DNA of 32,984 nucleotides from Candidatus Poseidoniales archaeon (lineage in GTDB: Archaea > Thermoplasmatota > Poseidoniia > Poseidoniales > Thalassarchaeaceae), in assembly GCA_028821815.1 (NCBI GenBank), contig JAPKEY010000001.1, forward strand, positions 1 to 32,984. Reading direction: 5' to 3'. Of this stretch, positions 1 through 12,664 are shown piece by piece; the stretch's first letter is position 1; the number at the start of each line of letters is the position of its first letter. The notes below the pieces were generated by a model. The model saw only the letters and a list, made by a program, of their open reading frames with translations, searched no databases and was not told the DNA's origin. The position numbers and the translations under genes were made by a program.

Positions 1-277
1 CTTCTTCGGTGAGATATGGTTCGATACCGAACCACAGTGTGCTACCACCTCCTTCCTCTTGCGTGGGCCGATATACATGAGCGAATAGAGGTCCGCGAAG
101 ATGGTAAATCAGATTGAGTGGCTCCATTTTAGAAGCGGCGCGATCCAATGGACCGTAATACATTGGACGGGAGCCGTGACGTGATTCAAAATCCTCGACC
201 CATTCACGAACGTGGTCGAACTGAGATAGGACGCCGTCGAGGTCTCCTCGGGCGAATTCGGGTTCTTCGGTTGCCAT
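1..277 (-). CDS. arlI: Archaellum motor/assembly ATPase ArlI (FlaI), N-terminal fragment; the gene runs off the left edge of the window
   Basis: Absent from the ORF track because it has no stop codon in the window. Hand translation of the minus strand from ATG 277-275 is open to position 1: MATEEPEFARGDLDGVLSQFDHVREWVEDFESRHGSRPMYYGPLDRAASKMEPLNLIYHLRGPLFAHVYRPTQEEGGGSTLWFGIEPYLTEE. The h-x-I-EP-x-L-T-E-E segment resembles the conserved N-terminal-domain motif of FlaI/ArlI. The position directly after arlH fits the canonical F-G-H-I-J order. Confidence 0.7.
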   Translation of the reverse strand, partial: MATEEPEFARGDLDGVLSQFDHVREWVEDFESRHGSRPMYYGPLDRAASKMEPLNLIYHLRGPLFAHVYRPTQEEGGGSTLWFGIEPYLTEE

Positions 278-287
278 GATTTATCCC

Positions 288-983
288 TCAACTGACTGCT
301 GTAATATCGACAATGAAACCCATGCCAGGTTCAACCCGCCAACCAATTCTAGGTTGCACCGGACCTGCGGCACGTAGGAAGCGGTTAACCGCTAGAACTC
401 GTGAAAGACTACCTCCGACCTCTGATGTTCGCATCTCGATGGAAACCTCAGCTGAGGCTGATAGAGTTCGCATCATTTCGTCTGAAATTTCATCCGGATC
501 TAGTAACAACATGAGTGAGCGCTCTTCTGAACAAAATGTTCGCAGGCGGCTGAGTAGTTGTTCTGGTGTCCCCTCATAGTTCTGAAGGATCATTGATGCT
601 CGATCAATGACTGAAATATCTGCATTCTGCAATGCCTCAGATGACAAGACATCCTCGATGTCAACGCTTTCTTCAACTTCATCAGATACAACTCCAAAGC
701 GAGACAATAGGGTGAATGTGCCTGAATTGGCAGCATCCTCCAATGGGTAACCTAGGCTGTTCACTTGCTCCAACCAACCCCGTGTTGTGAGTTCGGTTGT
801 AACCACAGTTGTTCGGACACCGTTTGAAACCAAACCATAGGCCAATCGTTGAGAAATCAAACTCTTTCCCGCACCAATATTGCCGGTTACAATGTAGAGC
901 GCCCTTCGGGGGAGGAAGCGCCCTAAGCTATCGGACAGACTGTCCGTCTCTAATTCGAAAGCAAACCCAATATCATCAGACAA
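288..983 (-). CDS. arlH: Archaellum KaiC/RecA-like ATP-binding protein ArlH (FlaH)
   Basis: 231 aa. Walker A GNIGAGKS is preceded by SLSDSLGRFLPRRALYIVTG, the layout seen in FlaH. The start is TTG and overlaps the arlG stop by 8 nt. It lies between arlG and arlI. Confidence 0.8.
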   Translation of the reverse strand: MSDDIGFAFELETDSLSDSLGRFLPRRALYIVTGNIGAGKSLISQRLAYGLVSNGVRTTVVTTELTTRGWLEQVNSLGYPLEDAANSGTFTLLSRFGVVSDEVEESVDIEDVLSSEALQNADISVIDRASMILQNYEGTPEQLLSRLRTFCSEERSLMLLLDPDEISDEMMRTLSASAEVSIEMRTSEVGGSLSRVLAVNRFLRAAGPVQPRIGWRVEPGMGFIVDITAVS

Positions 984-1464
984 GACGGATCACCTCGCTG
1001 AATGAATATTGGCCAGAGATGCCTTGATAGTGCTCGCTGCGCACAACAATGGTCACGGTAATTTCCTGTCCTGCTGACATCGTCACTCCCGAAGGACAAA
1101 CCTGTAATTCGGCCACTTCTCCTGAAGTCCAGACAGAACTATTTCCGAGCAATCGTGTTTGATTTACTGTTGATGCTGTGCCATTCACGATAATGCCGAT
1201 TTCGCCATCCAACAGTTCAAGGGCACCTGTATTTTGAATGTGCAAAGAGAGATTACAAGATGGTTGGTCCCAAGAAACTTGCATTGGATCACTGGTCAAC
1301 GCGGCTTTGGTTTTCGAATTGGCTTCGGCCTGATTTTGAACTGTATCCACAGAATTGGCCAATCCCCCCCATGATGCAATCAGTAAGGTAGTGACGATGC
1401 CTGCGACCATTAAGCCGGAAATCAGCATAATCAATTCACTTGTACCACCGTCTGCCATAGCCAC
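976..1464 (-). CDS. arlG: Archaellum accessory protein ArlG (FlaG-like), with an archaellin-like N-terminal hydrophobic helix
   Basis: 162 aa. The N-terminus GGTSELIMLISGLMVAGIVTTLLIA is typical of the FlaF/FlaG family, followed by a beta-rich C-terminal part. The start is GTG at 1464 (an ATG alternative is at 1458), 4 nt after the arlF stop. Assignment as G rather than F rests on gene order only. Confidence 0.7.
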   Translation of the reverse strand: MAMADGGTSELIMLISGLMVAGIVTTLLIASWGGLANSVDTVQNQAEANSKTKAALTSDPMQVSWDQPSCNLSLHIQNTGALELLDGEIGIIVNGTASTVNQTRLLGNSSVWTSGEVAELQVCPSGVTMSAGQEITVTIVVRSEHYQGISGQYSFSEVIRLV

Positions 1465-1467
1465 ACC

Positions 1468-1869
1468 TCATGAAAACGATATTCCTGATTGGCCGCCCAT
1501 GCTTGCGACAAAGATGCGTGCAGGAGATGTGAAACCTGTACCACTCAACTGTATATGCAATGTTTCCCCTGGGAAGAGAATGGTGCTCTGGTTATGGTAG
1601 TCACTCGCTCTAATTGGCAAAGCGCCATCAATGCTGAGCCATGTTTGATCGAAAGATATGGTTTCATCTCCTGCATTGGTCATATTGAGGTGAATTACGC
1701 CATTTGATTCTGAGGCGTTGATGAGGCGAATCTCAGGTTCGTCTGTTGCACCCCCTACGACTTCTGAAGCTGAAAGAGCACTGTTACTAAGTGACAATGA
1801 GGCAAGAGCGAATATGCCAAGAAGTGCTGTTCCGACAATCAAAGCTGAGATGCTTACTGAGCCGCCCAC
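1468..1869 (-). CDS. arlF: Archaellum accessory protein ArlF (FlaF-like)
   Basis: 133 aa. N-terminal hydrophobic helix SISALIVGTALLGIFALASLSL followed by a beta-rich domain. GTG start 4 nt after the upstream stop. Position is between the archaellin region and arlG. Confidence 0.65.
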   Translation of the reverse strand: MGGSVSISALIVGTALLGIFALASLSLSNSALSASEVVGGATDEPEIRLINASESNGVIHLNMTNAGDETISFDQTWLSIDGALPIRASDYHNQSTILFPGETLHIQLSGTGFTSPARIFVASMGGQSGISFS

Positions 1870-1872
1870 ATC

Positions 1873-2697
1873 TCAGGCCCCCTCTCCAGAGGTGGCCCGG
1901 GAATTTCGCCATGCTTCTACCATCGAGCCGAACATCAGTAGTGTACGATGTGGTAAGTGTTCTGAGCCATCGTTATTGATTGCAGGATTGGCTAAACCAA
2001 TGATGGCAGTTAACTCAGTAGATTCATCCTTAGAAATCATCCCACTGGCCTTGGCTTTATCGATAAAAATCCCAGCAGATTCTGCCGAAAGATGATCGAG
2101 TAATAATGCTGAAATCTCACTCACTGTCACCGGGGGGCCTTGAGAACGAGAATCTGGGCGCCGATTTAGGAATGGATTGAGGTCTGCAACACTCCCTTCA
2201 TACAAATCAAGTAAATTGACAGTCTCACCTTCAGGTGATTCTGAATCTTCTACATCTTCTGAAGTTTCGCCTTCCTGTTCTCCTTCGTCACCATCACCAT
2301 CGACAGTCACTAGGGTGTCCGTTGACAATACGTGGGGAAAATTGTCTGATACATTCAACTGTGTTAGGCGGGCATCCATGATGCCCATGGTCGCTTCAAT
2401 ACGATCAAATCGGTCATCCAATCTTTGCTCAATCGCTTTCGTGTCTATTGTTGAAGAATCTGAGGGCGTAGGTTTACCCTCAACAATTGCGGGTTCAAAT
2501 CCGCTGGCGCCAACGCGAGCCCTGGCGGGGGATGGGGCGAGTGTCCAAGCATCCTCTTCGATCGGGATTGACTCCTCTGGGACCATCACAGCCTCAACGG
2601 CTTGCTCGGATAATGATTCTAAACGCTTCACTGAGGCTTCATCGACGTCGTCGTATTCGTCGTCCGAACTGAACCCGAGAAATGACAGTAATCCCAT
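1873..2697 (-). CDS. Highly acidic hypothetical protein occupying the ArlC/D/E slot of the archaellum operon
   Basis: About 274 aa from ATG 2697 (the track's 2703 start is a TTG). It is rich in D/E (SSDDEYDDVDE, GDGDEGEQEGETSEDVEDSESPEGE) and has no TM segment or signal peptide. I could not recognise the conserved FlaD/E C-terminal signature by eye, so only the position supports an ArlCDE-like role. Confidence 0.6.
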   Translation of the reverse strand: MGLLSFLGFSSDDEYDDVDEASVKRLESLSEQAVEAVMVPEESIPIEEDAWTLAPSPARARVGASGFEPAIVEGKPTPSDSSTIDTKAIEQRLDDRFDRIEATMGIMDARLTQLNVSDNFPHVLSTDTLVTVDGDGDEGEQEGETSEDVEDSESPEGETVNLLDLYEGSVADLNPFLNRRPDSRSQGPPVTVSEISALLLDHLSAESAGIFIDKAKASGMISKDESTELTAIIGLANPAINNDGSEHLPHRTLLMFGSMVEAWRNSRATSGEGA

Positions 2698-2716
2698 TGA
2701 CAAAACCCCATGATGT

Positions 2717-2754: not shown

Positions 2755-3333
2755 TCATACGATGGTATCGCCATTGCCTACACTGTTGTAGTGTAGTTGG
2801 GCGTAAGTTTCGCCACCACCGTCGATGATTACACGGAGTTCTTGTTCATCACCAACACCGGGTTGACAGTTTGTCGAGGTGTCAATTGGAACCAGGAATG
2901 TTTCACCGGCCTCGACTGACGAACCGGCTACAAGGAGATTTCCTGACAAGTCTGTTGCAACACCGTCAAAGTCAGCTGTATTGACCTCGGCTGTACCTGC
3001 ACCACCATCACAAACAATGAACCAATCCATGTTGTCCAATAAGGTGGTATCTGAACCGGCACTGAGTTGAACGATCAGTGTGATTTCATCTGCTGCATTT
3101 CCGGCTGCGTTATCGTCACTAACATACGCGCCAACCAGTTGAATTTTTCCACTGATTTCATCACGTGTATCATCACCGGTTGCTTCAGCTCTCTGTTGAA
3201 GTTCTTCGGCTGTCTTGATGATGATTGTTGATGCTACTGCTGCGACCAAAATCAATGCAATGAAGATAATCATTGCACCGATGCCGATGGCACCGCTCTC
3301 ATTCTCGTTTAGGTATCGGTTATCTCGGGACAT
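2755..3333 (-). CDS. arlB: Archaellin (major archaellum filament protein, FlaB/ArlB)
   Basis: 192 aa. Class III (type IV pilin-like) signal peptide and hydrophobic helix: MSRDNRYLNENESG|AIGIGAMIIFIALILVAAVASTIIIKTAEELQQRAE, which is the canonical archaellin N-terminus. It is the first gene of the arl operon. Confidence 0.9.
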   Translation of the reverse strand: MSRDNRYLNENESGAIGIGAMIIFIALILVAAVASTIIIKTAEELQQRAEATGDDTRDEISGKIQLVGAYVSDDNAAGNAADEITLIVQLSAGSDTTLLDNMDWFIVCDGGAGTAEVNTADFDGVATDLSGNLLVAGSSVEAGETFLVPIDTSTNCQPGVGDEQELRVIIDGGGETYAQLHYNSVGNGDTIV

Positions 3334-3413: not shown

Positions 3414-4277
3414 TTATTTGGCCAAATCAAGGTAAATAGTGACAAATTCGACCTGGTTTGGCTCAAGTGTTCTGATGAATGGCCATGAATTGGTTTTCCA
3501 CCCTGGTGGGATCCATGGCGTCACCAAAACATCCGTCATTGTTTCTGCAGTTTTATTCTCTACGCGGCAATCGATTGTGAGTCCTTGCTGAGTCAAATTG
3601 TAACCCGATTGGATTGATAGACGTTCTTGCAAACTTCCCGGGGCGCCTACCTCTCGAATGGCAGCCATGGCTGATGGTGTAATGTTGAAGAGAAGGTCGC
3701 ATGATTCTCCGGGATTGAGGGCTATAATTGCCAGCGATGGGGGGGATGATCGCCAATTCGGGGGAACAGGGGCTTTGACGTTGAATCCAGGGAGTAAGCC
3801 TGAACTTGTGTTCTCTACCCTGACCAGGAGTTGTCCATTGTCAGAACCGATGTCCCAACGGGCTTCAACACCCATCCAAAATTCATAGAAAATAAATGGG
3901 TTCAGCGCGGCACTGTTAATGAGTAAATGTTCTACCAGCCTTTCCAATTGCAGAGATGATTCATCGAAAGCACCTCGCAAAATGAGAGTTTCAGCTGTCT
4001 TCATTGTCAGCAACACATCAACAAGTTCGTTTTCAGTTGTTGATCTCTCTCTGATAATAGTGTGCAACATGCCGATTGAACGATGCATTCGGCCAACTTG
4101 AATCTTAAGTTCGTCAATGTCTTGGCGTGCTTGACGAATGCTTCTACGGGCATCTCTTGCATGTTTGTCTGTTACTGATTCCTGAATCAAGCGAATATGT
4201 TCGTCAAGAATTAAATTGAGGCGTGTGACTTGAGCCCGATAGGAGCTTTGAGTTGAAATTGTAGTTAATTCAGACAT
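3414..4277 (-). CDS. Hypothetical protein: N-terminal coiled coil plus two CARDB/NEW3-like beta-sandwich modules, no signal peptide
   Basis: 287 aa. Its ATG (4277) overlaps the stop of the upstream 1567-aa gene by 8 nt. The N-terminal ~120 aa are heptad-rich and charged. The C-terminal half contains VENTSSGLLPGFNVKAPVPPNWRSS and VENKTAETMTDVLVTPWIPPGWKTNS, the same h-x-N ... P-x-G-W motif that repeats in the neighbouring giant protein. Confidence 0.8.
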   Translation of the reverse strand: MSELTTISTQSSYRAQVTRLNLILDEHIRLIQESVTDKHARDARRSIRQARQDIDELKIQVGRMHRSIGMLHTIIRERSTTENELVDVLLTMKTAETLILRGAFDESSLQLERLVEHLLINSAALNPFIFYEFWMGVEARWDIGSDNGQLLVRVENTSSGLLPGFNVKAPVPPNWRSSPPSLAIIALNPGESCDLLFNITPSAMAAIREVGAPGSLQERLSIQSGYNLTQQGLTIDCRVENKTAETMTDVLVTPWIPPGWKTNSWPFIRTLEPNQVEFVTIYLDLAK

Positions 4278-7200
4278 TGGAATCTACCTCTACGCTTACG
4301 TCGTGTGCCTCGCCCCATCTCTGTCCAATCGTAATCCTGCGCAAATCTGCTGATGGGTTGCCCAATTGAATGAGCAATTCTTGGGATTCGATTTCCATCG
4401 CTGCCAGCTGATTGAAAATAAGGAGCCAGATATTTCTCGTTCGAAGAGTCATGTACACGACCAGAAGGATCCCTATAGTTGCATACAAGAGAATGGAACT
4501 GATATTCGCTAGTGACCATGAAATATCGTTTGGCATCACGATTGCAACAATAATGAAGCCCAACGGGGCGAAAGCCAATTTCATTGCGAGTTGCTTTAGA
4601 ACTCGATCCATCTCAACTTCATGATCCTCAAAGATTGAGTCGGACCCCCGTTGCATATTTTGCCGATCAGAAAGAATGGCGGGGATCTCAAACGCAGATG
4701 ACCGTGATGTAATGAAAACGACCCACAACAATGCTGTAGCTGCCAACGAGAAATTCACGTATGCGCCGAGATTGTATTGTGTGGCCAAACCCAACAATGC
4801 TGTTCCCGAATACGCACATAACATGAGGGCTCTTTCATCTTCAGAGGCTCTACGTAACAGGCGACTGGACTGTGTCACTAAAACAAGAGTGATGGGGATG
4901 AGGAGGAGGAGGGGTAGTGACCATGATTGGACGTCGAACGATACGGCCTTGACGTCGTTTGATTCGTCATCGCCTGCCATTTCTGGCGATTCTATGGTAA
5001 CTGTACACGGCACCGTCTCAGCGGAAACCCACCAGTTGAGGGCGTCGGATTTGATTTGCCATTCTAATTCCCTTGTCTCAAATGGTTGCATGCTGATGAT
5101 TGCTTGTGTTGCTTCATCTTGAATCGTGATCCCGGGTTCACAATCCAATGTCGCAACGATTCCAAGAGCCGTTCCTGCATTTCCGGTGTTTGTTATTTCA
5201 GCAACCAGTGTTCCTGATTTTGATTCAATAAATTCTGAACCCTCTTCAATCTTAATTGCAACAACGGAAGGGTCAGCCCATGCATCCACTTGGAAGTCAA
5301 ATATTACCTGGGTGCTGGTAAATTCTTCTGGGTGTGTCAAATTGAAAATGAGGGTCCATCCATCCCCAGGGGGTATACTAGTTGCAGGAGGTAAAATTGC
5401 TCGGATTGTTATTGATTGTAATTGCATAGGAGTTGCGGGGAGTAGGGTAAATGGGCTATTGGAAAGGGAAGTAAATCCGCCCCCATAGTCTATTTCAAAT
5501 GACCAATTGACATCCCCTGAATACAATGTTTCATTGATATAGCGACTGGCATTTTCCAATTCTAATTCATAGGCGATCGCGCGTAAATCTGCTGTTTGTC
5601 CAACGGCTGGAACGTGCATCCAATCCAAATCGATATCTTGTGTTTGCTCCCCTCCTAGGAGTTCTATGGAGTCATCTGAATGCATTCTGCTGATGCGTAA
5701 CACTGTTGCAAGAAGTGCATCTCCAGAGTGATTATCTTGGGGTGAAAATGTCAATCGCAATCCAGATTGCTCAAGATTGTAGTGATCTGATGCAATGCCT
5801 TCAACGCTAAAGGATACGGCGCGCTTGTCCCCACTAGAGAGTGTGATATTGGTGGCGTCGCAATCGGATAGATCCCATCGTGTTGGAGTATCTACTTCAC
5901 AATCTAAATCGAGAATGACATCTTGATTACCATCATTTGAGATTTCGATTTCAAATGTTCTCAATTCACCTGGCAGTAAATCAACGACGTCGGGGAAATC
6001 ATCTGATGAAAGGACGAAGATGGGTTCGACGTTGAATTGTATCGAGGATAGGCCCACTTGTATCGAGTCGCTGACATTGGTTGCCATTAGCATGAGATTG
6101 TGGATTGAACCCGGGTCAAGGTTCGCACCATTTGACATGGGTGGAACCGTGACATCGATGATTAGTGGCAAGACTTCAATGCCTTCACCGTCAATTGTCA
6201 TATTCAATGGTGTAACGGATGATTGCCAGCCTGTAGGGGGGAGTGTTGTGAAATTAACAAACTCCTCAAGATTGCCAACATTGGTCACATTAACTGGAAT
6301 ACTGAGGCTCATTCCTGGTACAACAGAATATTCGCTGGTATGTTCAAATTCAATCTGGTGATTGGCAATCATTTTCACATATACATCGATGCGATTAAGT
6401 TCGATCCCGTTGTGATACAATACCACTTGAGCGCTATGATTTTCATCGGCGCGTGCAAATTGCTCTGCGGTAACTTCGATTTGAACTATACTGACTTCGC
6501 CCGGTTGAATGTCGATGTCGGTGGCGGAAATTAATGTCAAGTTGATATCATCGAGTGATTCCTCGATTGATATCGTAAATGTCTGCAGAGAATTACCAGT
6601 ATTATTGGCTTCAAGGGCAATCGATGAGTTGCCGTTAACTGGAATTACTGCAACCGCATATTCTGGAGTGAGTGATGCTCCGATGACTTCCTCTACAAGG
6701 AAAGGAATCGATGCCACTGTCAGAATTTCTCCAGAGTCACTCATCACTGTGACATTTACTTCGAAGGGTGTGTCTGCCCGGGTGTTAGGGGGCGCTGTTA
6801 CACTGAGTGATGTGGTCACGTTGTCCCCTCCAACTGAAGGCCATGCATCTATGATTGAATGGAGATTGGAGATTGCTGTTGGAGATATGGTGGTAATCCA
6901 GCCTTCAGGCCCATCGGCACTCAATGTGAAATTTGTTTGGTGATTACCTGTATTGGAGATTGTGAGGGGGATGGTTGAAAGTATCTCGGGAGTTACAATC
7001 GTTGGAGGTGGGATTTCAACGTCAGTGAGGGTCAGTTCTGGGATCTCAAGTGTGATGCTAATGTTTGACTCAGGTGCCTGGATACCACTCAGTGCCCCAG
7101 ACAAGGTAAGGTTTGCAATCACATCGATCGAGAGGGTGCCTGCAAGGGGTAGTAAATCAGAAGGGCCGAGAATTGAAGCTACAAGTGATTTTGTTTCCCC

Positions 7201-8973
7201 AAGTTCCATACTGGTTTGACTTGGTGTGACTGAGCTATTCCATCGGAAAATCTCGTTTGGTCCATTTGACGGACTCGAAGATATGAAACTGTTCGGTCCA
7301 GAAGATAGTTGAATGTCTACGGATGTCGATATCCCAGAAATAAGATTGTGGCGTAATTCCATTTCTATGTCGACGAAGCGAGAAATGGGCCCGGTCAGCA
7401 ATTCGGATGGATCTACTGGAAATTCAGTTTGTTCAGCAAATAATTCCACCATGATTGTAGATTGGACCTCGAGTGTTGTATGTTGGACGTTGGGTCCACC
7501 ACCTAGTGGTGTCACCGAGGTCCAAAGGGTCAATTGATTGCCTTCTGCGAGTTTGGACGTGGGATCAAATGGTAGTGAAAGTGCTGGTGGTTGAACTATT
7601 GCATTGACGATAATTTCCTCACCGACGGTCATGTAAGGAGTAGTGGTTGGGTATGTCTCAACCGTCCACCCGGGCGCGGTTTGTGAAAAGCCAACGGCAA
7701 GGTTGAAAATTGCAGGGGATGTGCCGTTATTGCGTAAAGTATACTGGATTATTTCTTCTGTCCCAGGGATGATAGGTACAAACCAATTACTGTGATTCAA
7801 CTCACCCAATAACAAGTCGCCAGCCATTACTGCAGCTGAATCTGAAAGATTATATTCGCCCCCTTCACTTTCAATTTCGACCGTGATTAGATCGGATAGA
7901 GAACGATTCGTGCCCAGCGGAACTGTCACTGTGACAACAATGGTTGTTGAGGCTGATGCATTGACGATTTCGGTTTGGCCTGGATTGTTGGAAGTATCAG
8001 CCCAACCTTGGACGGAGGATACTGTGAAATTGTATCGATCGGGTGCTTCTCCAATGTTTTGAACCATGAATGACAGGGTCGTTGAAGACCCCGGGTCGAC
8101 TGCTCGATCGCTCGGTGCGATCAAGGTGGTTCGATAGGGGCTGAATGTGACTGTGCGCGGAGTAATGCTGACGGTAACTGATAAGAGTGGGGTTGTTGAA
8201 TTAAAGTATACTTCACCAGATAATGTGTAATCACCCGACAACCCCGCTGCATTGATGACAAGTGAGGCGAGTTCTACTGAGGGTGGGAATGCAATGCTGC
8301 CAGCCAAAAGTGAGGTTGGCATTCCTGTGAATGTGACGGGTGTTCCGCCCAAAATAGGTGTGAGTGTGATGGCTGGAGTCGCCTCTGTATCGATGTTTCC
8401 AGCATTTCGGACGCCAACTGAAACGACTTCGTTTTCTTGGGCTAGGCGCGCGCCGTCTGCAGGCAAGGTGTCCGAGTAGGTTTCACCTGCGTTTACCTCA
8501 TTCACATCAAAATTCTGAATGAGTTGGTTGTTGGATATATCAATGTCTGAAAGCATTGCTGCGTATGCATTGATTTCTTGTCCAATGCCCAGTGTTGCTG
8601 TCCAAGTGAATACATATTGAGACGCCGCTCCAGGTGAAAGTGAGACTGACTGGCTGCCGATTGAAACCGAACCCATTCCATCGTTGCTATCAATGAACAC
8701 AGACACGGCACCCACCCCAGGGAGTAAGCCGTCGTTCGCAACAGTGATTCGTGCCTCTTGAGATCCTGGGGTGAGAACGTCTGTTACGCATAGATTGCAA
8801 TAATATGAGGCGCCGATCCATTCAATCTGAGTTATGTTGATATCGGGATTTGCGTCTCTTGCAACTGTGAATTCAACATCCATTACTGAATGATTATTCA
8901 ATGGGGTGGAGGCGAATGGGGCGAAACAATGTAGCACCAGTATCGCAAAAACGAGAATAGTTTTGTTACGCAT
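4270..8973 (-). CDS. Giant cell-surface protein: signal peptide, about ten or more CARDB/NEW3-like beta-sandwich repeats, polytopic (~5 TM) C-terminal membrane domain
   Basis: 1567 aa. N-terminal signal peptide MRNKTILVFAILVLHCFAPFAS. A GGAGGG sits 8 nt upstream of the ATG. Recurrent motifs: VRNAGNIDT, VQNIGEAPDRYNFTV, LRNNGTSPAIFNLAV, ISNTGNHQTNFTLSADGPEGW, ANNTGNSLQTFTI, VTNVGNLEEFVNFTTLPPTGW, ISNDGNQDVILDL, ITNTGNAGTALGI. The last ~217 aa (nt 4273-4923) contain about five hydrophobic helices separated by R/K-rich loops. Confidence 0.9.
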   Translation of the reverse strand: MRNKTILVFAILVLHCFAPFASTPLNNHSVMDVEFTVARDANPDINITQIEWIGASYYCNLCVTDVLTPGSQEARITVANDGLLPGVGAVSVFIDSNDGMGSVSIGSQSVSLSPGAASQYVFTWTATLGIGQEINAYAAMLSDIDISNNQLIQNFDVNEVNAGETYSDTLPADGARLAQENEVVSVGVRNAGNIDTEATPAITLTPILGGTPVTFTGMPTSLLAGSIAFPPSVELASLVINAAGLSGDYTLSGEVYFNSTTPLLSVTVSITPRTVTFSPYRTTLIAPSDRAVDPGSSTTLSFMVQNIGEAPDRYNFTVSSVQGWADTSNNPGQTEIVNASASTTIVVTVTVPLGTNRSLSDLITVEIESEGGEYNLSDSAAVMAGDLLLGELNHSNWFVPIIPGTEEIIQYTLRNNGTSPAIFNLAVGFSQTAPGWTVETYPTTTPYMTVGEEIIVNAIVQPPALSLPFDPTSKLAEGNQLTLWTSVTPLGGGPNVQHTTLEVQSTIMVELFAEQTEFPVDPSELLTGPISRFVDIEMELRHNLISGISTSVDIQLSSGPNSFISSSPSNGPNEIFRWNSSVTPSQTSMELGETKSLVASILGPSDLLPLAGTLSIDVIANLTLSGALSGIQAPESNISITLEIPELTLTDVEIPPPTIVTPEILSTIPLTISNTGNHQTNFTLSADGPEGWITTISPTAISNLHSIIDAWPSVGGDNVTTSLSVTAPPNTRADTPFEVNVTVMSDSGEILTVASIPFLVEEVIGASLTPEYAVAVIPVNGNSSIALEANNTGNSLQTFTISIEESLDDINLTLISATDIDIQPGEVSIVQIEVTAEQFARADENHSAQVVLYHNGIELNRIDVYVKMIANHQIEFEHTSEYSVVPGMSLSIPVNVTNVGNLEEFVNFTTLPPTGWQSSVTPLNMTIDGEGIEVLPLIIDVTVPPMSNGANLDPGSIHNLMLMATNVSDSIQVGLSSIQFNVEPIFVLSSDDFPDVVDLLPGELRTFEIEISNDGNQDVILDLDCEVDTPTRWDLSDCDATNITLSSGDKRAVSFSVEGIASDHYNLEQSGLRLTFSPQDNHSGDALLATVLRISRMHSDDSIELLGGEQTQDIDLDWMHVPAVGQTADLRAIAYELELENASRYINETLYSGDVNWSFEIDYGGGFTSLSNSPFTLLPATPMQLQSITIRAILPPATSIPPGDGWTLIFNLTHPEEFTSTQVIFDFQVDAWADPSVVAIKIEEGSEFIESKSGTLVAEITNTGNAGTALGIVATLDCEPGITIQDEATQAIISMQPFETRELEWQIKSDALNWWVSAETVPCTVTIESPEMAGDDESNDVKAVSFDVQSWSLPLLLLIPITLVLVTQSSRLLRRASEDERALMLCAYSGTALLGLATQYNLGAYVNFSLAATALLWVVFITSRSSAFEIPAILSDRQNMQRGSDSIFEDHEVEMDRVLKQLAMKLAFAPLGFIIVAIVMPNDISWSLANISSILLYATIGILLVVYMTLRTRNIWLLIFNQLAAMEIESQELLIQLGNPSADLRRITIGQRWGEAHDVSVEVDSNV

Positions 8974-9008: not shown

Positions 9009-9025
9009 CTACACCTACGGTGTAG
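9009..9025 (-). terminator. 7-bp stem / TAC-triloop hairpin between the 1050-aa and 1567-aa genes
   Basis: The plus strand reads CTACACC-TAC-GGTGTAG. It lies in the 96-nt gap, 45 nt after the upstream stop and 36 nt before the next ATG. No oligo-T tract follows, so it may be a processing or attenuation site rather than a terminator. Confidence 0.4.
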
Positions 9026-9069: not shown

Positions 9070-12000
9070 TCACGCCACCTCCACCAATGTGATGAATTGC
9101 AATTTGTTTGCAGTTGACATCTGGGCCGAGAATTCAGATCTATCTCCTTTGTTTAAGATTTGAATGCGACATTCGTAAAGATTTGTTCTCTTGATCAATT
9201 CATGTTCTTTGTAGAAATGCACGTACACGTAATACGTTCCTTTTGGTGTTTTTTTCTCTGGCCAATATGCATTCTCGACGGGTACTCGTGTGTTGCCTTT
9301 TTGATTCATTTCAACATCGAGTATTCCGCCATCTTGTGATTTTCGGTTGCGAGGATGGATGATTTCACCACTCGGAGAAACGACGAGCAAATTGAAATCG
9401 TTCTTGTTGTCCCACATCAAGGATACTTGGAGATCTCCGGAATTTGCTTCTGCTTGTTGGAGGCGCTCTTCGAAGTCTTCCTTGAGCCATTCGTCGTCAC
9501 CCAGTGGTTGGAGACCACCTCGTTTGTATGCCTCGTTGAGAGCTGTATGCAATCGAACCTGTTTATCCATCTCAATTTCAGAACTATTCGCAGTATTTTG
9601 CATGACCTTACGGCGAGCGATTCGAAGTTGCTGGAGTGTTTTTAATTGACGATCGTCGGTGTCTTCGAATACAATAGATGCGAGTGTTGTCAAATCTTCT
9701 GCTTCATTAATCATGGAACGATATTTCTCAAACAGTTCTTGATATTCTATTTGCTCTTGTTTCTTTATCCCGGCCTCGATTAATTTACGTCGTTTGAGAA
9801 GGGCTTTCTCAATATATTTCACAACGTCGCTTGATATGTGTGAATAGCGAATTGCTGCCAATTCATCAAGATCTCTTGACGCTTCAATTTCAGCCACGAT
9901 TTTGTTATACTGCTCCTCTTGTTCTGCAATGTATTGCTTTCGTTTGACCTCTTCAAGTTCAGATTCTCGTTTCTCCATCAATCTCTTCAGCATCACCGTA
10001 TGAACGGTTGAAACCTTGTCATTAATTGTGGGTAATTCTTCAACCGTTTGAGCGGACACCACGTCTGCTCTTTGTAGGCGATAGAGTTCAGATTCAGATT
10101 CCAGCCGTTTGTTCATTGTTTCTGCATCTGGAACTTCAATCGATGCGATGAGTTTGAGTTTGTCTCCAAAACTAGTCTTACCTGAATGCTGAAAATAATC
10201 TGCACCAACTCGGCTGCGTAAGGTGTAGATGGTTGGATCTGATTTTCGCAATCTTTGGTGGCGTTTTCGGTGCCAAACAAACACGTTGTAAATACCAGGT
10301 GTGGGTGTGGTGCTCTGAGGCCAAACAATATTCTCTAAGGCGGATTTCATTTCGGGTTGAGAATTCATTTCGAGGTCGAGATGGCCGCCACAAGATGATT
10401 TGCGCTTGCCCCTATGGATTATTTCTCCGTTGGAGGTGCGTACAATCAAATCCAAATCATTCATGTTGTCCCACAATAAACTGAACCGAAGATGGCCGTC
10501 GCCTGCGTCCAGTGTCTTGATGCGGGTTCTGAATGCGGCTTCTGGTTCAAAATCAAATTCATCGGGTATTGGCGGTTTCTTAGATTTCTTTTCCGCTTTT
10601 TCCACGTATGTGGTAATCATTTCATCTTCAACAAGAATTTCTCTAACTTCTTCTTTGATTTCGATTAAGCGTGCTTCCTGTTCCTCGTTGATTTCTTCAA
10701 TCTCGATTTTGTCAATCTCGGCAGAAGATTTCGCAGTTTCAAGACGACCCCGTAGGAGTTGATACTGCTTGGCTTGCGCTTCTTCGACTCTTTGTCTTTC
10801 AATTTCTTCAAGATAATCTAACCGGGTAAGACGTAACTCTTCCAATTCTTGTTGCTGAGTTTCTGTGATGTTGATAAAGTCTACAGCAAGGAGTTCCTCG
10901 GTTTCTTCAATTCTGGGAATTGAATCCAAATATCGTGTATATTGTTCGGTAAATTTTCGTTGGCGGGCCAGTTCCACCAATTCCCCTCGTCTTGTTATTT
11001 TGATTTCTGTTAGCAATTCAAATTGTTCATCCGTCACACCCTGAATCCTGATGGCGTCCAGTTCAAGCACATATTCACAATCAAGAATCTTAGAATTTAG
11101 TTCATCACATACCAAGTTCTCCCTGGTGCGGGCGGAGAGTTGCTTCAATTCTTCTTGTTGGGTTGGGTTCACACCTGTAATGCGAATCCTATCAAGAGCT
11201 GATGATGATTTTGCTGATTCTATTCCCAATCGTATCTCTTCAGCGCGGGCGTCTTCCCTCTCACTCTGATCTTTCGCATCTAACGCAAGTATGCGCTTGT
11301 TCCGCCGTTCGTCTAATTCGGCAAGTAAATCGGCCGGTAAATCTTCGAATTCCATGTTATGCAATTCTTCTTGATCTTCGCAATCATGAATCAAATCTGA
11401 AAAATGGCGATAGAGTTCTGCTTCGAATTGAAGACGCTCTTTTTCACTCAATCGTGAAAGATAAAATTCGTAATGGGCTTTGAGGCGCGTTGAGCCTTCT
11501 TCATTCAATCCTGAGAAATCTAACGATTCGAGATAGTTGACTGTTTGTGCAGAGCGGATCTCCCGATACAATTCTTCTTCGCGTCTTAACTGTTCAAGTT
11601 GGGATGATAGTTCATCAGTTTCAGCATCAATGAGGGCTTTAGTTGCTTTTTCTTGGCTTTCATGTAACCCCAATTCCCTTTTTCGGATTTCTTGAATGGC
11701 GTCTTCAAATGTAAGTTGATACATTCGTTCATATAATTCCAGTAAAGCCGCCTGACGTAATTCCAATTCAACTAGTGTTGCGCCCTCAAGTGGGGTTTCA
11801 ACAAGGTCTTGGTTGACTTCGATATTGTATTCCTCACTCAACCCTTGGATTAATTCGATGATACCTTTGCATTCATCCCTTTTTTCAGTGGTACGATCAA
11901 GAATTGCGTGTCTTTCGATATTGGTCTCTTGTAAATCGGTGATTTCCTGTTTCATTGGCCCGCGTTTATCGGTTTGATGTTGGATTTGACGGGATGGGAA

Positions 12001-12222
12001 TGGGGCCATTTCTGGAGAATATTCAACTCGGGTACCGACTAGTGATTGTGACAATGATGCTCGCGACGGTGGAAGGATGTCTTCGACTTCGATATCCTCC
12101 ATTTTTAGTGCACCCAGTAGCGATTCGGGTTTCCTTCTTCCTTGACTCAAATTGGAGGCTGCTTGCCAAACCATAACCAAAACGATGGAGGTGACTATTG
12201 CATATCCGATCATAGTATTCAT
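9070..12222 (-). CDS. Giant N-terminally TM-anchored coiled-coil protein with two copies of an unassigned ~120-aa beta-rich domain
   Basis: 1050 aa. A single N-terminal TM (IGYAIVTSIVLVMVWQAA) is followed by RRK, so positive-inside predicts the bulk is cytoplasmic. Long E/K/R/Q-rich helical regions carry at least eight copies of a ~40-50-aa motif. The domain copies are at aa ~574-697 (nt 10132-10503) and aa ~928-1050 (nt 9073-9441). Confidence 0.9.
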   Translation of the reverse strand: MNTMIGYAIVTSIVLVMVWQAASNLSQGRRKPESLLGALKMEDIEVEDILPPSRASLSQSLVGTRVEYSPEMAPFPSRQIQHQTDKRGPMKQEITDLQETNIERHAILDRTTEKRDECKGIIELIQGLSEEYNIEVNQDLVETPLEGATLVELELRQAALLELYERMYQLTFEDAIQEIRKRELGLHESQEKATKALIDAETDELSSQLEQLRREEELYREIRSAQTVNYLESLDFSGLNEEGSTRLKAHYEFYLSRLSEKERLQFEAELYRHFSDLIHDCEDQEELHNMEFEDLPADLLAELDERRNKRILALDAKDQSEREDARAEEIRLGIESAKSSSALDRIRITGVNPTQQEELKQLSARTRENLVCDELNSKILDCEYVLELDAIRIQGVTDEQFELLTEIKITRRGELVELARQRKFTEQYTRYLDSIPRIEETEELLAVDFINITETQQQELEELRLTRLDYLEEIERQRVEEAQAKQYQLLRGRLETAKSSAEIDKIEIEEINEEQEARLIEIKEEVREILVEDEMITTYVEKAEKKSKKPPIPDEFDFEPEAAFRTRIKTLDAGDGHLRFSLLWDNMNDLDLIVRTSNGEIIHRGKRKSSCGGHLDLEMNSQPEMKSALENIVWPQSTTPTPGIYNVFVWHRKRHQRLRKSDPTIYTLRSRVGADYFQHSGKTSFGDKLKLIASIEVPDAETMNKRLESESELYRLQRADVVSAQTVEELPTINDKVSTVHTVMLKRLMEKRESELEEVKRKQYIAEQEEQYNKIVAEIEASRDLDELAAIRYSHISSDVVKYIEKALLKRRKLIEAGIKKQEQIEYQELFEKYRSMINEAEDLTTLASIVFEDTDDRQLKTLQQLRIARRKVMQNTANSSEIEMDKQVRLHTALNEAYKRGGLQPLGDDEWLKEDFEERLQQAEANSGDLQVSLMWDNKNDFNLLVVSPSGEIIHPRNRKSQDGGILDVEMNQKGNTRVPVENAYWPEKKTPKGTYYVYVHFYKEHELIKRTNLYECRIQILNKGDRSEFSAQMSTANKLQFITLVEVA

Positions 12223-12226
12223 CGAA

Positions 12227-12664
12227 TCACCCCTCTGGTTGTTCCTCTTCTTCGGCTCCTGATGAAATCGGTATTGATTGAATATGGATGGGGCGCCCTT
12301 GTTTGTTGTAGCGAGCGATTAATGAGGAAAGAAGTGCGTCATGGGAAGTTTCAGAAATTCCTAATTTTCTACGCTCATCCCAAAGAAGGATCTGTTCGGT
12401 GCGTGTTAGGATTCCGTCGTCAAGGTATACTTCGATGAGGCGGCGATATGTGTCGCGATCTGAAATTGCGTAAACGAGTTGAGTGTTATCGATTGATAGG
12501 GCCCGAAGTTGGATTTGGTTACCGAGTATAATCGCTTCATTGTGGGTGATTTTGCGATTGTCATATCCAACCTGTACTTCGTTTGCAATCGTTTGGAGGA
12601 ATTCAATTGTTTTACCGCGATTAATGCGCCGTTGAAATTTGCGAGATTTTCTAGAAAGGCGCAT
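12227..12664 (-). CDS. Small basic/helical protein, possibly TerB/DjlA-N-like
   Basis: 145 aa. Basic N-terminus (RLSRKSRKFQRRINRGK). Two helix-hairpin motifs, NRKITHNEAIILGNQIQLRALSI and DDGILTRTEQILLWDERRKLGIS, resemble the D-G-x-h-x-x-x-E ... L-G-h-S signature of TerB-like domains. Acidic tail EEEEQPEG. There are 12 nt after the upstream stop and 4 nt before the next ATG. The homology call is by eye only. Confidence 0.75.
   Translation of the reverse strand: MRLSRKSRKFQRRINRGKTIEFLQTIANEVQVGYDNRKITHNEAIILGNQIQLRALSIDNTQLVYAISDRDTYRRLIEVYLDDGILTRTEQILLWDERRKLGISETSHDALLSSLIARYNKQGRPIHIQSIPISSGAEEEEQPEG

Follow-up and report, generated by a model that had tools for sequence, protein, structure and literature searches.

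A candidate accessory protein of the Poseidoniales archaellum: a giant, sequon-rich surface protein with a five-helix membrane anchor

Surface layer (S-layer)-like proteins built from multiple immunoglobulin (Ig)-like folds are reported, on the basis of comparative genomics, in archaellum loci, with arCOG05057 in Methanococcales and analogues in Thermococcales (PMC13705601, a 2026 PLoS Genetics survey). S-layer-like proteins with C-terminal transmembrane (TM) segments exist in archaeal type IV pilus (T4P) loci (PMC4858521, Makarova et al. 2016). The proposal is that the multi-Ig proteins of such loci prime the S-layer, or modify it locally, to accommodate the filament (PMC13705601, PMC4858521). 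As far as these two papers say, no archaellum-locus multi-Ig protein has been characterized experimentally. Here, we focus on a large predicted surface protein, called BIG, that is specified by a gene of 1567 amino acids (aa) at positions 4270..8973 of a stretch of 32,984 nucleotides (nt) of contig JAPKEY010000001.1 (assembly GCA_028821815.1). We refer to that whole stretch as the window; all of its features described below lie on the minus (-) strand. The host is a Thalassarchaeaceae (MGIIb) archaeon of the order Poseidoniales, and the second family used for comparison is MGIIa. Poseidoniales (MGII) dominate the archaeal plankton of surface oceans and, to our knowledge, the order has no cultured member. 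We favor the interpretation, which we consider probable, that BIG is an accessory component of the archaellum, specific to Poseidoniales, and that it forms an envelope-spanning complex with the product of the adjoining downstream 287-aa gene, called P2.

The gene cluster itself has been described. Specifically, Tully (2019) presented a "putative MGII motility operon" in which syntenic "orthologous proteins lacking annotations" lie beside FlaAGHIJ (PMC6336850, Fig. 4). That operon, like the flagella operon described by Rinke et al. 2018 (PMC6461757), is the cluster that houses BIG, and both studies left its hypothetical genes unanalysed (PMC6336850, PMC6461757). Whether the MGII archaellum functions in swimming or in particle attachment is debated (PMC6336850, PMC6461757). 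What is new here is the architecture of BIG, its topology, its coupling to P2, its genus-level co-occurrence with the archaellum, and a structure model.

BIG is a member of the Poseidoniales archaellum operon, a decisive piece of context that an initial annotation of the window did not use. The MGIIb gene order is 145-aa gene – 1050-aa coiled coil – BIG – P2 – arlB – x276 – arlF – arlG – arlH – arlI – arlJ, where x276 denotes a 276-aa gene; BIG lies two genes upstream of the archaellin gene, on the same strand. Five MGIIb contigs from other samples possess the identical order, which runs on through ArlI, ArlJ, and an MscS channel gene, and they share four conserved upstream genes of ~322, 270-296, 145-172, and 1050 aa. 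In a complete single-contig MGIIa genome (G029), the order is 144-aa gene – BIG (1636 aa) – P2 homologue – archaellin – x278 – 231 aa – 165 aa – ArlH – ArlI – ArlJ. The BIG protein of this genome is collinear with that of the window over its whole length at 26% identity (E 4e-125), and its P2 homologue and x278 are, respectively, 32% and 33% identical to their window counterparts. Among 80 further loci from named Poseidoniales metagenome-assembled genomes (MAGs), the order 145-aa-type gene – BIG – P2 – arlB – x276 – … – arlJ is found wherever the flank reaches. The tally is five MGIIb and ~80 MGIIa loci, with arlJ last.

The connection between BIG and the archaellum extends to gene content. 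We surveyed 285 Poseidoniales genomes, each at least 80% complete, with a profile of the BIG C-terminal anchor. The profile matches 197 of these genomes, in single copy, and ArlJ is present in 198. By family, anchor matches occur in 156 of 162 MGIIa genomes and in 39 of 120 genomes of the window's own family. Anchor and ArlJ are found together in 194 genomes, 84 have neither, 3 have only BIG, and 4 have only ArlJ. All seven discordant genomes are fragmented MAGs; they include the window's own genome, in which the contig ends inside arlI. At the level of the genus (n=26), 17 genera carry both, 9 genera (75 genomes) carry neither, and none is discordant. The distance from BIG to arlJ, which lies downstream of it on the same contig and strand, is ~7-9 kb. 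The phyletic pattern agrees with earlier studies, which place the operon in all MGIIa and in part of MGIIb (PMC6336850, PMC6461757). BIG is gained and lost together with the archaellum operon. Two contigs carrying BIG and archaellum genes, CALDQY010000305.1 and CAXQWT010000116.1, come from MAGs labelled Rhodobiaceae bacterium and Salipiger bermudensis, which are probably binning errors.

Outside the order, the anchor domain was not found in ~300 genomes of other Thermoplasmatota families, and a phmmer search over 1.8 billion representative proteins returned only 30 matches. Every full-length match (~1385-1700 aa) carries the anchor near its C-terminus, followed by at most an acidic tail. When residues 1300-1567 are used as the query, 28 proteins of 1552-1594 aa are recovered at 99-100% coverage and 49-97% identity, and their named sources are Thalassarchaeaceae or Thermoplasmatota.

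The anchor itself is unusual. The initial annotation held that BIG ends, in place of a single TM helix or a sorting signal, in a polytopic stretch of ~217 aa that includes a ~50-aa cytoplasmic tail, and the results agree. Specifically, the last 217 residues (nt 4273-4923) contain, by Kyte-Doolittle hydropathy, helices at residues 1351-1370, 1382-1400 (weakly hydrophobic), 1402-1423, 1460-1482, and 1488-1512. These constitute a five-helix membrane module (residues 1351-1512; 4438..4923) with conserved cytoplasmic helical extensions, after which comes a predicted cytoplasmic tail of 55 aa (residues 1513-1567; 4273..4437). Averaged over 41 family members, lysine plus arginine counts are 2.2, 5.4, and 5.9 in the predicted inside loops and tail, and 0.0 and 0.2 in the outside loops. 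This pattern points to, and fits, a predicted N-out/C-in five-pass topology that places the tail in the cytoplasm. An AlphaFold2 (AF2) model of residues 1228-1567, computed from the 41-sequence alignment (predicted local distance difference test [pLDDT] 86.4, predicted TM-score [pTM] 0.72), consists of a beta-sandwich followed by helices 1355-1375, 1380-1400, 1404-1441, 1451-1479, 1488-1536, and 1540-1556. In the model, helices 3 and 5 extend well past membrane length into the cytoplasm. An anchor-only AF2 model is concordant (pLDDT 80.0).

Conservation is concentrated in this region. In MGIIb orthologues, sequence conservation is highest in the anchor and tail, with a mean column identity of 0.76-0.78 versus 0.61-0.72 for the ectodomain, and the tail (…LGNPSxDLRRITIGQRWGEAHDV…) is the most conserved block. 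In the order-wide alignment, in which the closest orthologues are 47-64% identical to the window sequence and all remoter members 23-27%, the invariant residues are S1350, Y1388, G1395, E1429, D1436, G1443, H1451, Q1461, L1462, G1472, P1481, and N1490 and, in the tail, E1527, L1537, and P1540. The invariant polar residues sit on predicted cytoplasmic helices.

Searches with the anchor return little. Pfam and NCBIfam scans of the 226-aa anchor alone yield only noise (E >= 0.09), and PDB sequence searches, both with the anchor plus last sandwich and with a whole-protein profile, yield only generic sandwich or coiled-coil matches. A fold search with the model that includes the last sandwich is dominated by Ig-like matches (Fsx1, CARDB, complement MG domains) and is uninformative on the helices. 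With the anchor-only model, Foldseek against the PDB finds no match at E<=0.001. The best matches, which are non-significant, are FtsX (8x61_C, E 0.11, query TM-score 0.37) and 7mdx_B (E 1.5). Like the BIG anchor, proteins of the FtsX/LolC (MacB) type possess a few membrane helices that are prolonged beyond the bilayer; they differ from it in helix number and topology, and no FtsE-type ATPase gene adjoins BIG. Three other candidate identities were rejected. For a MotA/PomA/ExbB-like stator, Foldseek gives E 0.7-1.3 for ExbB (query TM-score 0.17-0.20) and 1.7 for PomA (0.16). For a fusexin/HAP2 fusogen, only the last sandwich aligns, to one Fsx1 domain over 124 columns (query TM-score 0.29), and the whole-protein profile finds no PDB relative. 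A PGF-CTERM protein is likewise not indicated: NCBIfam gives no PGF-CTERM match, and the chain ends in …HDVSVEVDSNV after the five helices. The genome does encode archaeosortase A (ArtA), the conventional PGF-CTERM route, which is not the anchoring route of BIG.

P2 (3414..4277) is predicted to be cytoplasmic and to consist of an N-terminal helical/coiled-coil part and a NEW3-like beta-sandwich. The P2 start and the BIG stop share an 8-nt overlap (ccaATGtcTGA). The initial annotation singled out this overlapping gene as the obvious candidate for a functional link to BIG, and the arrangement proves to be a feature of the order. Of 81 loci, 42 show an overlap of exactly 8 nt (ATGnnTGA) between the BIG stop and the nearest P2 start, and 79 have that start within -20 to +16 nt of the stop, with both families represented; BIG and P2 are adjacent in every locus with enough flank. 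Because the genes overlap, translational coupling is expected to yield the two proteins in fixed proportion. P2 has no signal peptide, and a TM-like segment is present in 0 of 31 family members (maximum 19-aa Kyte-Doolittle value 1.39). NEW3 is matched by 28 of these members, and 23 show weak coiled-coil (EzrA-type) matches in the N-terminal half. Scans for Arl families (Arch_fla_DE, FlaC_arch, NCBIfam Arl models) yield no match in the 31 P2 members and none in BIG. The P2 profile finds only generic sandwich or coiled-coil matches among PDB sequences. At least 352 P2 relatives exist; the 120 listed are all unnamed or "hypothetical," and the named organisms among these are Poseidoniales or unclassified marine Euryarchaeota/Thermoplasmatota.

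Turning to the outer part of BIG, the 1567-aa open reading frame stands as initially annotated, in length and coordinates, as do the signal peptide, the repeated CARDB/NEW3-like modules, and the recurrent motif. A Sec-type signal peptide is predicted at residues 1-25 (8899..8973), where hydrophobic residues 3-25 lie behind the R/K-containing N-terminus, MRNK; it is the least conserved part of the orthologue alignment. Orthologues range from 1552 to 1594 aa in MGIIb and from ~1600 to 1800 aa in MGIIa. The ectodomain (residues 26-1350; 4924..8898) comprises ~11 modules and contains invariant cysteine pairs at 1025/1038 and 1278/1323. BIG matches Pfam NPCBM_assoc/NEW3 (PF10633) in three stretches (53.7 bits versus a gathering cut-off of 24.4) and the Ig-like FixG_C (PF11614; 41.9 bits versus 25.6). 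We cut the orthologue alignment into 11 segments of ~110 aa, D1-D11, and compared them by hhalign. Eight of the 11 (D2, D3, D4, D6, D7, D8, D9, D11) are mutually related at 67-96% probability; for D1, D5, and D10, this profile-profile comparison finds no link to the other ectodomain segments. By regular expression, the N-x-G-[NTS] motif occurs seven times in BIG and the G-W of the P-x-G-W type five times. The last ectodomain module is modelled by AF2 as a beta-sandwich, and it matches the CARDB domain 3idu and one Fsx1 domain. On the CARDB domain of PF1109 (PDB 3idu), it superposes with a target TM-score of 0.72-0.78 and an rmsd of 2.8-2.9 Å. CARDB, NEW3, and FixG_C beta-sandwiches are generic building blocks and are uninformative on the function of BIG. 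A query with region 270-660, for relatives that have other anchors, returned only the BIG orthologous family (1552-1697 aa).

BIG is rich in N-x-[ST] sequons, with 32 in total. Residues 23-1350 contain 29, in line with the ~30 ectodomain sequons initially counted, and shuffling these residues gives 15.4±3.4, with 0 of 2000 shuffles reaching 29. Orthologues have 22-42 sequons each. Sequon positions are often conserved, and N393, N845, N966, and N1042 are sequons in 15 of 15 orthologues. An STT3/AglB homologue is found in the window's own genome, which makes N-glycosylation of BIG, predicted from the sequons together with this homologue, plausible. The genome's only STT3/AglB match (G000:C244:3880-5079) lies inside a 2105-aa open frame, unusually long for an archaeal oligosaccharyltransferase. 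In three MGIIb contigs, genes for a DegT/DnrJ/EryC1 aminotransferase and a hexapeptide acyltransferase lie just upstream of the cluster (L003 2092-4247; L004 229-2414; L099 2186-4360). Their products could supply glycans for archaellin or for BIG.

The remaining genes of the cluster are assigned as follows. The archaellin ArlB (2755..3333) matches Pfam Arch_flagellin (2.7e-25). Next to it, x276 (1873..2703) encodes an acidic, conserved protein, 33% identical to its MGIIa counterpart and syntenic everywhere, that has no family match in Pfam and NCBIfam scans; it lies between arlB and arlF, the place of arlCDE in other Euryarchaeota. The ArlF-like (1468..1869; NCBIfam ArlF 6e-08) and ArlG-like (976..1464; NCBIfam ArlG 1.9e-18) proteins score below the curated cut-offs, and the latter also matches Pfam Arch_flagellin. 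ArlH (KaiC-like; 288..983) is below the curated cut-off for NCBIfam ArlH (2.4e-45) and above cut-off for the Pfam KaiC ATPase. The N-terminus of ArlI (2..277), cut by the contig end, is 77% identical to a T2SSE-domain protein of the MGIIb contig L003. The MscS-type gene that follows arlJ, on the same strand, occupies L002 18105-19421, L003 22335-23639, L099 22295-23611, L100 22360-23670, and L101 22324-23640. Neither the window's own genome nor two MGIIa genomes of 96-97% completeness gave a match to the ArlD/E domain PF04659, in a search whose positive controls, M. jannaschii and H. volcanii, matched and in which ArlC and ArlX were not searched by name.

Upstream of BIG, the 145-aa gene (12227..12664) is 48% identical to the MGIIa neighbor of BIG and syntenic where the flank suffices. 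Between it and BIG, in MGIIb only, is the gene for a 1050-aa TM-anchored coiled-coil protein (9070..12222). The MGIIa locus of G029 has no equivalent open reading frame between the 144-aa gene (L017 16541-16975) and BIG, and the 1050-aa gene looks like a family-specific insertion into the operon. The spacer that separates it from BIG is 96 nt in the window versus 1-19 nt in other MGIIb loci, and contains a perfect hairpin, CTACACC-GTA-GGTGTAG (9009..9025), with a 7-bp stem and a GTA loop. GGAGG occurs ~8 nt before the BIG ATG.

How might BIG and P2 function? From operon membership, joint gain and loss with the archaellum, the conserved cytoplasmic face, and the coupling to P2, we infer an accessory complex in which BIG contacts P2, the pair contacts the motor, and BIG has an anchoring role. 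The notion is that BIG would be exported by its Sec signal peptide, probably N-glycosylated, and displayed with its ~11 beta-sandwich modules standing outside the cell. The five-helix module would hold BIG in the membrane, with helices 3 and 5 reaching into the cytoplasm and presenting their invariant acidic and histidine residues there. Made in fixed proportion via translational coupling, BIG and P2 would assemble into a complex that crosses the membrane and connects the envelope with the cytoplasmic face of the ArlH/I/J motor; at the point of filament exit, this complex could serve as an anchor, collar, or scaffold. The outcome would be a glycosylated extracellular collar or local lattice linked to the motor, in a lineage in which no ArlD/E domain is detected. 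A more specific version is that BIG and P2 constitute a new archaellum motor component, with the glycosylated collar joined to ArlH/I/J and providing scaffold or stator support, and possibly surface sensing, in the role played by ArlCDE or ArlX elsewhere. We regard this version as tentative and less likely than not.

Several points weigh against an accessory complex. The expression, glycosylation, localization, and motor contact of BIG are predicted from sequence and models. The operon already encodes ArlF- and ArlG-like stator proteins, which leaves no obvious need for another anchor. The fold search with the anchor (Foldseek, PDB) gave no functional analogue. The genomes are related MAGs, and the co-occurrence counts are not independent events. 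Moreover, linkage and co-occurrence would look identical for a co-regulated adhesin. Such an adhesin is the main alternative, and we consider it possible, if rather doubtful. BIG would then bind particles or algal surfaces in concert with an attachment archaellum, the five-helix module would be merely a sturdy anchor, and P2 would be unrelated or chaperone-like. Multiple Ig/CARDB/NEW3-like modules are what fibrillar adhesins have, co-occurrence with ArlJ fits equally well, and Rinke et al. argue for an adhesive function of the MGII archaellum, noting that chemotaxis genes are absent (PMC6461757). However, a plain anchor leaves unexplained why the cytoplasmic loops and tail, with their invariant E/D/H residues, are the most conserved parts of the protein, and the order-wide conserved coupling to a cytoplasmic protein is also unaccounted for. 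Adhesins, furthermore, usually vary in repeat number, whereas the BIG ectodomain is collinear and of near-constant length between families only 26% identical.

The same cytoplasmic features could indicate that BIG is a surface-contact or mechanical sensor, whose ectodomain detects contact or load and whose five-helix module signals to P2 to regulate ArlH/ArlI, replacing the missing chemotaxis input. The long helices, which leave the membrane to enter a conserved cytoplasmic bundle, are compatible with this idea, as are the MscS channel gene that follows arlJ in 5 of 5 MGIIb loci and the undetected ArlD/E domain, given that elsewhere ArlCDE is the docking site for CheF (PMC13705601). The weak best fold matches are to mechanotransmitter membrane domains of the FtsX/LolC type (E 0.11, 1.5), but these are not significant, and family scans reveal no recognizable signalling domain (kinase, HAMP, PAS, or similar) in BIG or P2. 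We judge a sensor improbable. A general S-layer glycoprotein of the cell, a role that the initial annotation suggested, is very unlikely. BIG is large, secreted, sequon-rich, and composed of Ig-like modules, and it has a weak match to an NCBIfam "putative S-layer protein" (12.3 bits versus a cut-off of 110). Yet it is present in 0 of the 75 genomes, several of which are 91-98% complete, of the nine same-order genera in which ArlJ is likewise absent, and these organisms would still need an envelope. The archaeosortase for PGF-CTERM substrates is encoded as well, and BIG has no PGF-CTERM. What endures of the initial picture is a secreted, sequon-rich, multi-beta-sandwich membrane protein with a real anchor and a link to P2. 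Finally, the hydrophobic C-terminus might have been an artefact of two genes fused by misassembly or sequencing error, a fear raised at the outset. That explanation is refuted beyond reasonable doubt. The anchor domain occurs in more than 190 genomes, and orthologues keep the polytopic C-terminus: on every contig of sufficient length, it belongs to a single unbroken reading frame of ~1570-1810 aa. The assemblies are independent and come from many different studies.

If BIG is an accessory protein of the archaellum, then the Poseidoniales machine has a lineage-specific part marked by an ArlJ-coupled, predicted giant glycoprotein, a membrane module with no relatives in the searched libraries, and a coupled cytoplasmic partner. 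Should BIG and P2 prove to be a motor component, the archaea most abundant in surface-ocean plankton would build an archaellum base unlike that of all model archaea. BIG is also relevant to the hypothesis that multi-Ig proteins encoded in type IV filament loci adjust the envelope to accommodate the filament (PMC13705601).

Two known systems merit comparison. ArlX in Thermoproteota and ArlC/D/E in Euryarchaeota form the cytoplasmic motor scaffold and, like BIG and P2, are lineage-specific sets within archaellum operons. ArlX is membrane-anchored with a coiled coil, and in P2 a coiled-coil part precedes a beta-rich one. By analogy, BIG and P2 could take the ArlX/ArlCDE position in a lineage without a detectable ArlD/E domain. 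ArlX and ArlCDE have no sequence similarity to BIG and P2, and the huge ectodomain of BIG is absent from them. The archaellum-locus multi-Ig proteins of the arCOG05057 type differ from BIG in other respects. BIG ends in a five-helix module with a cytoplasmic face rather than in a single TM anchor, and that anchor has no detectable relative outside Poseidoniales in the phmmer and Thermoplasmatota searches described above. BIG is, moreover, coupled to the cytoplasmic P2 and restricted to one order, whose members have no detectable ArlD/E domain in the genomes searched. Compared by description, the arCOG05057-type proteins nonetheless share much with BIG: they are large secreted proteins with several Ig-like folds, their genes lie within an archaellum cluster, and they, like BIG, are proposed to act at the envelope, at the site of filament exit.

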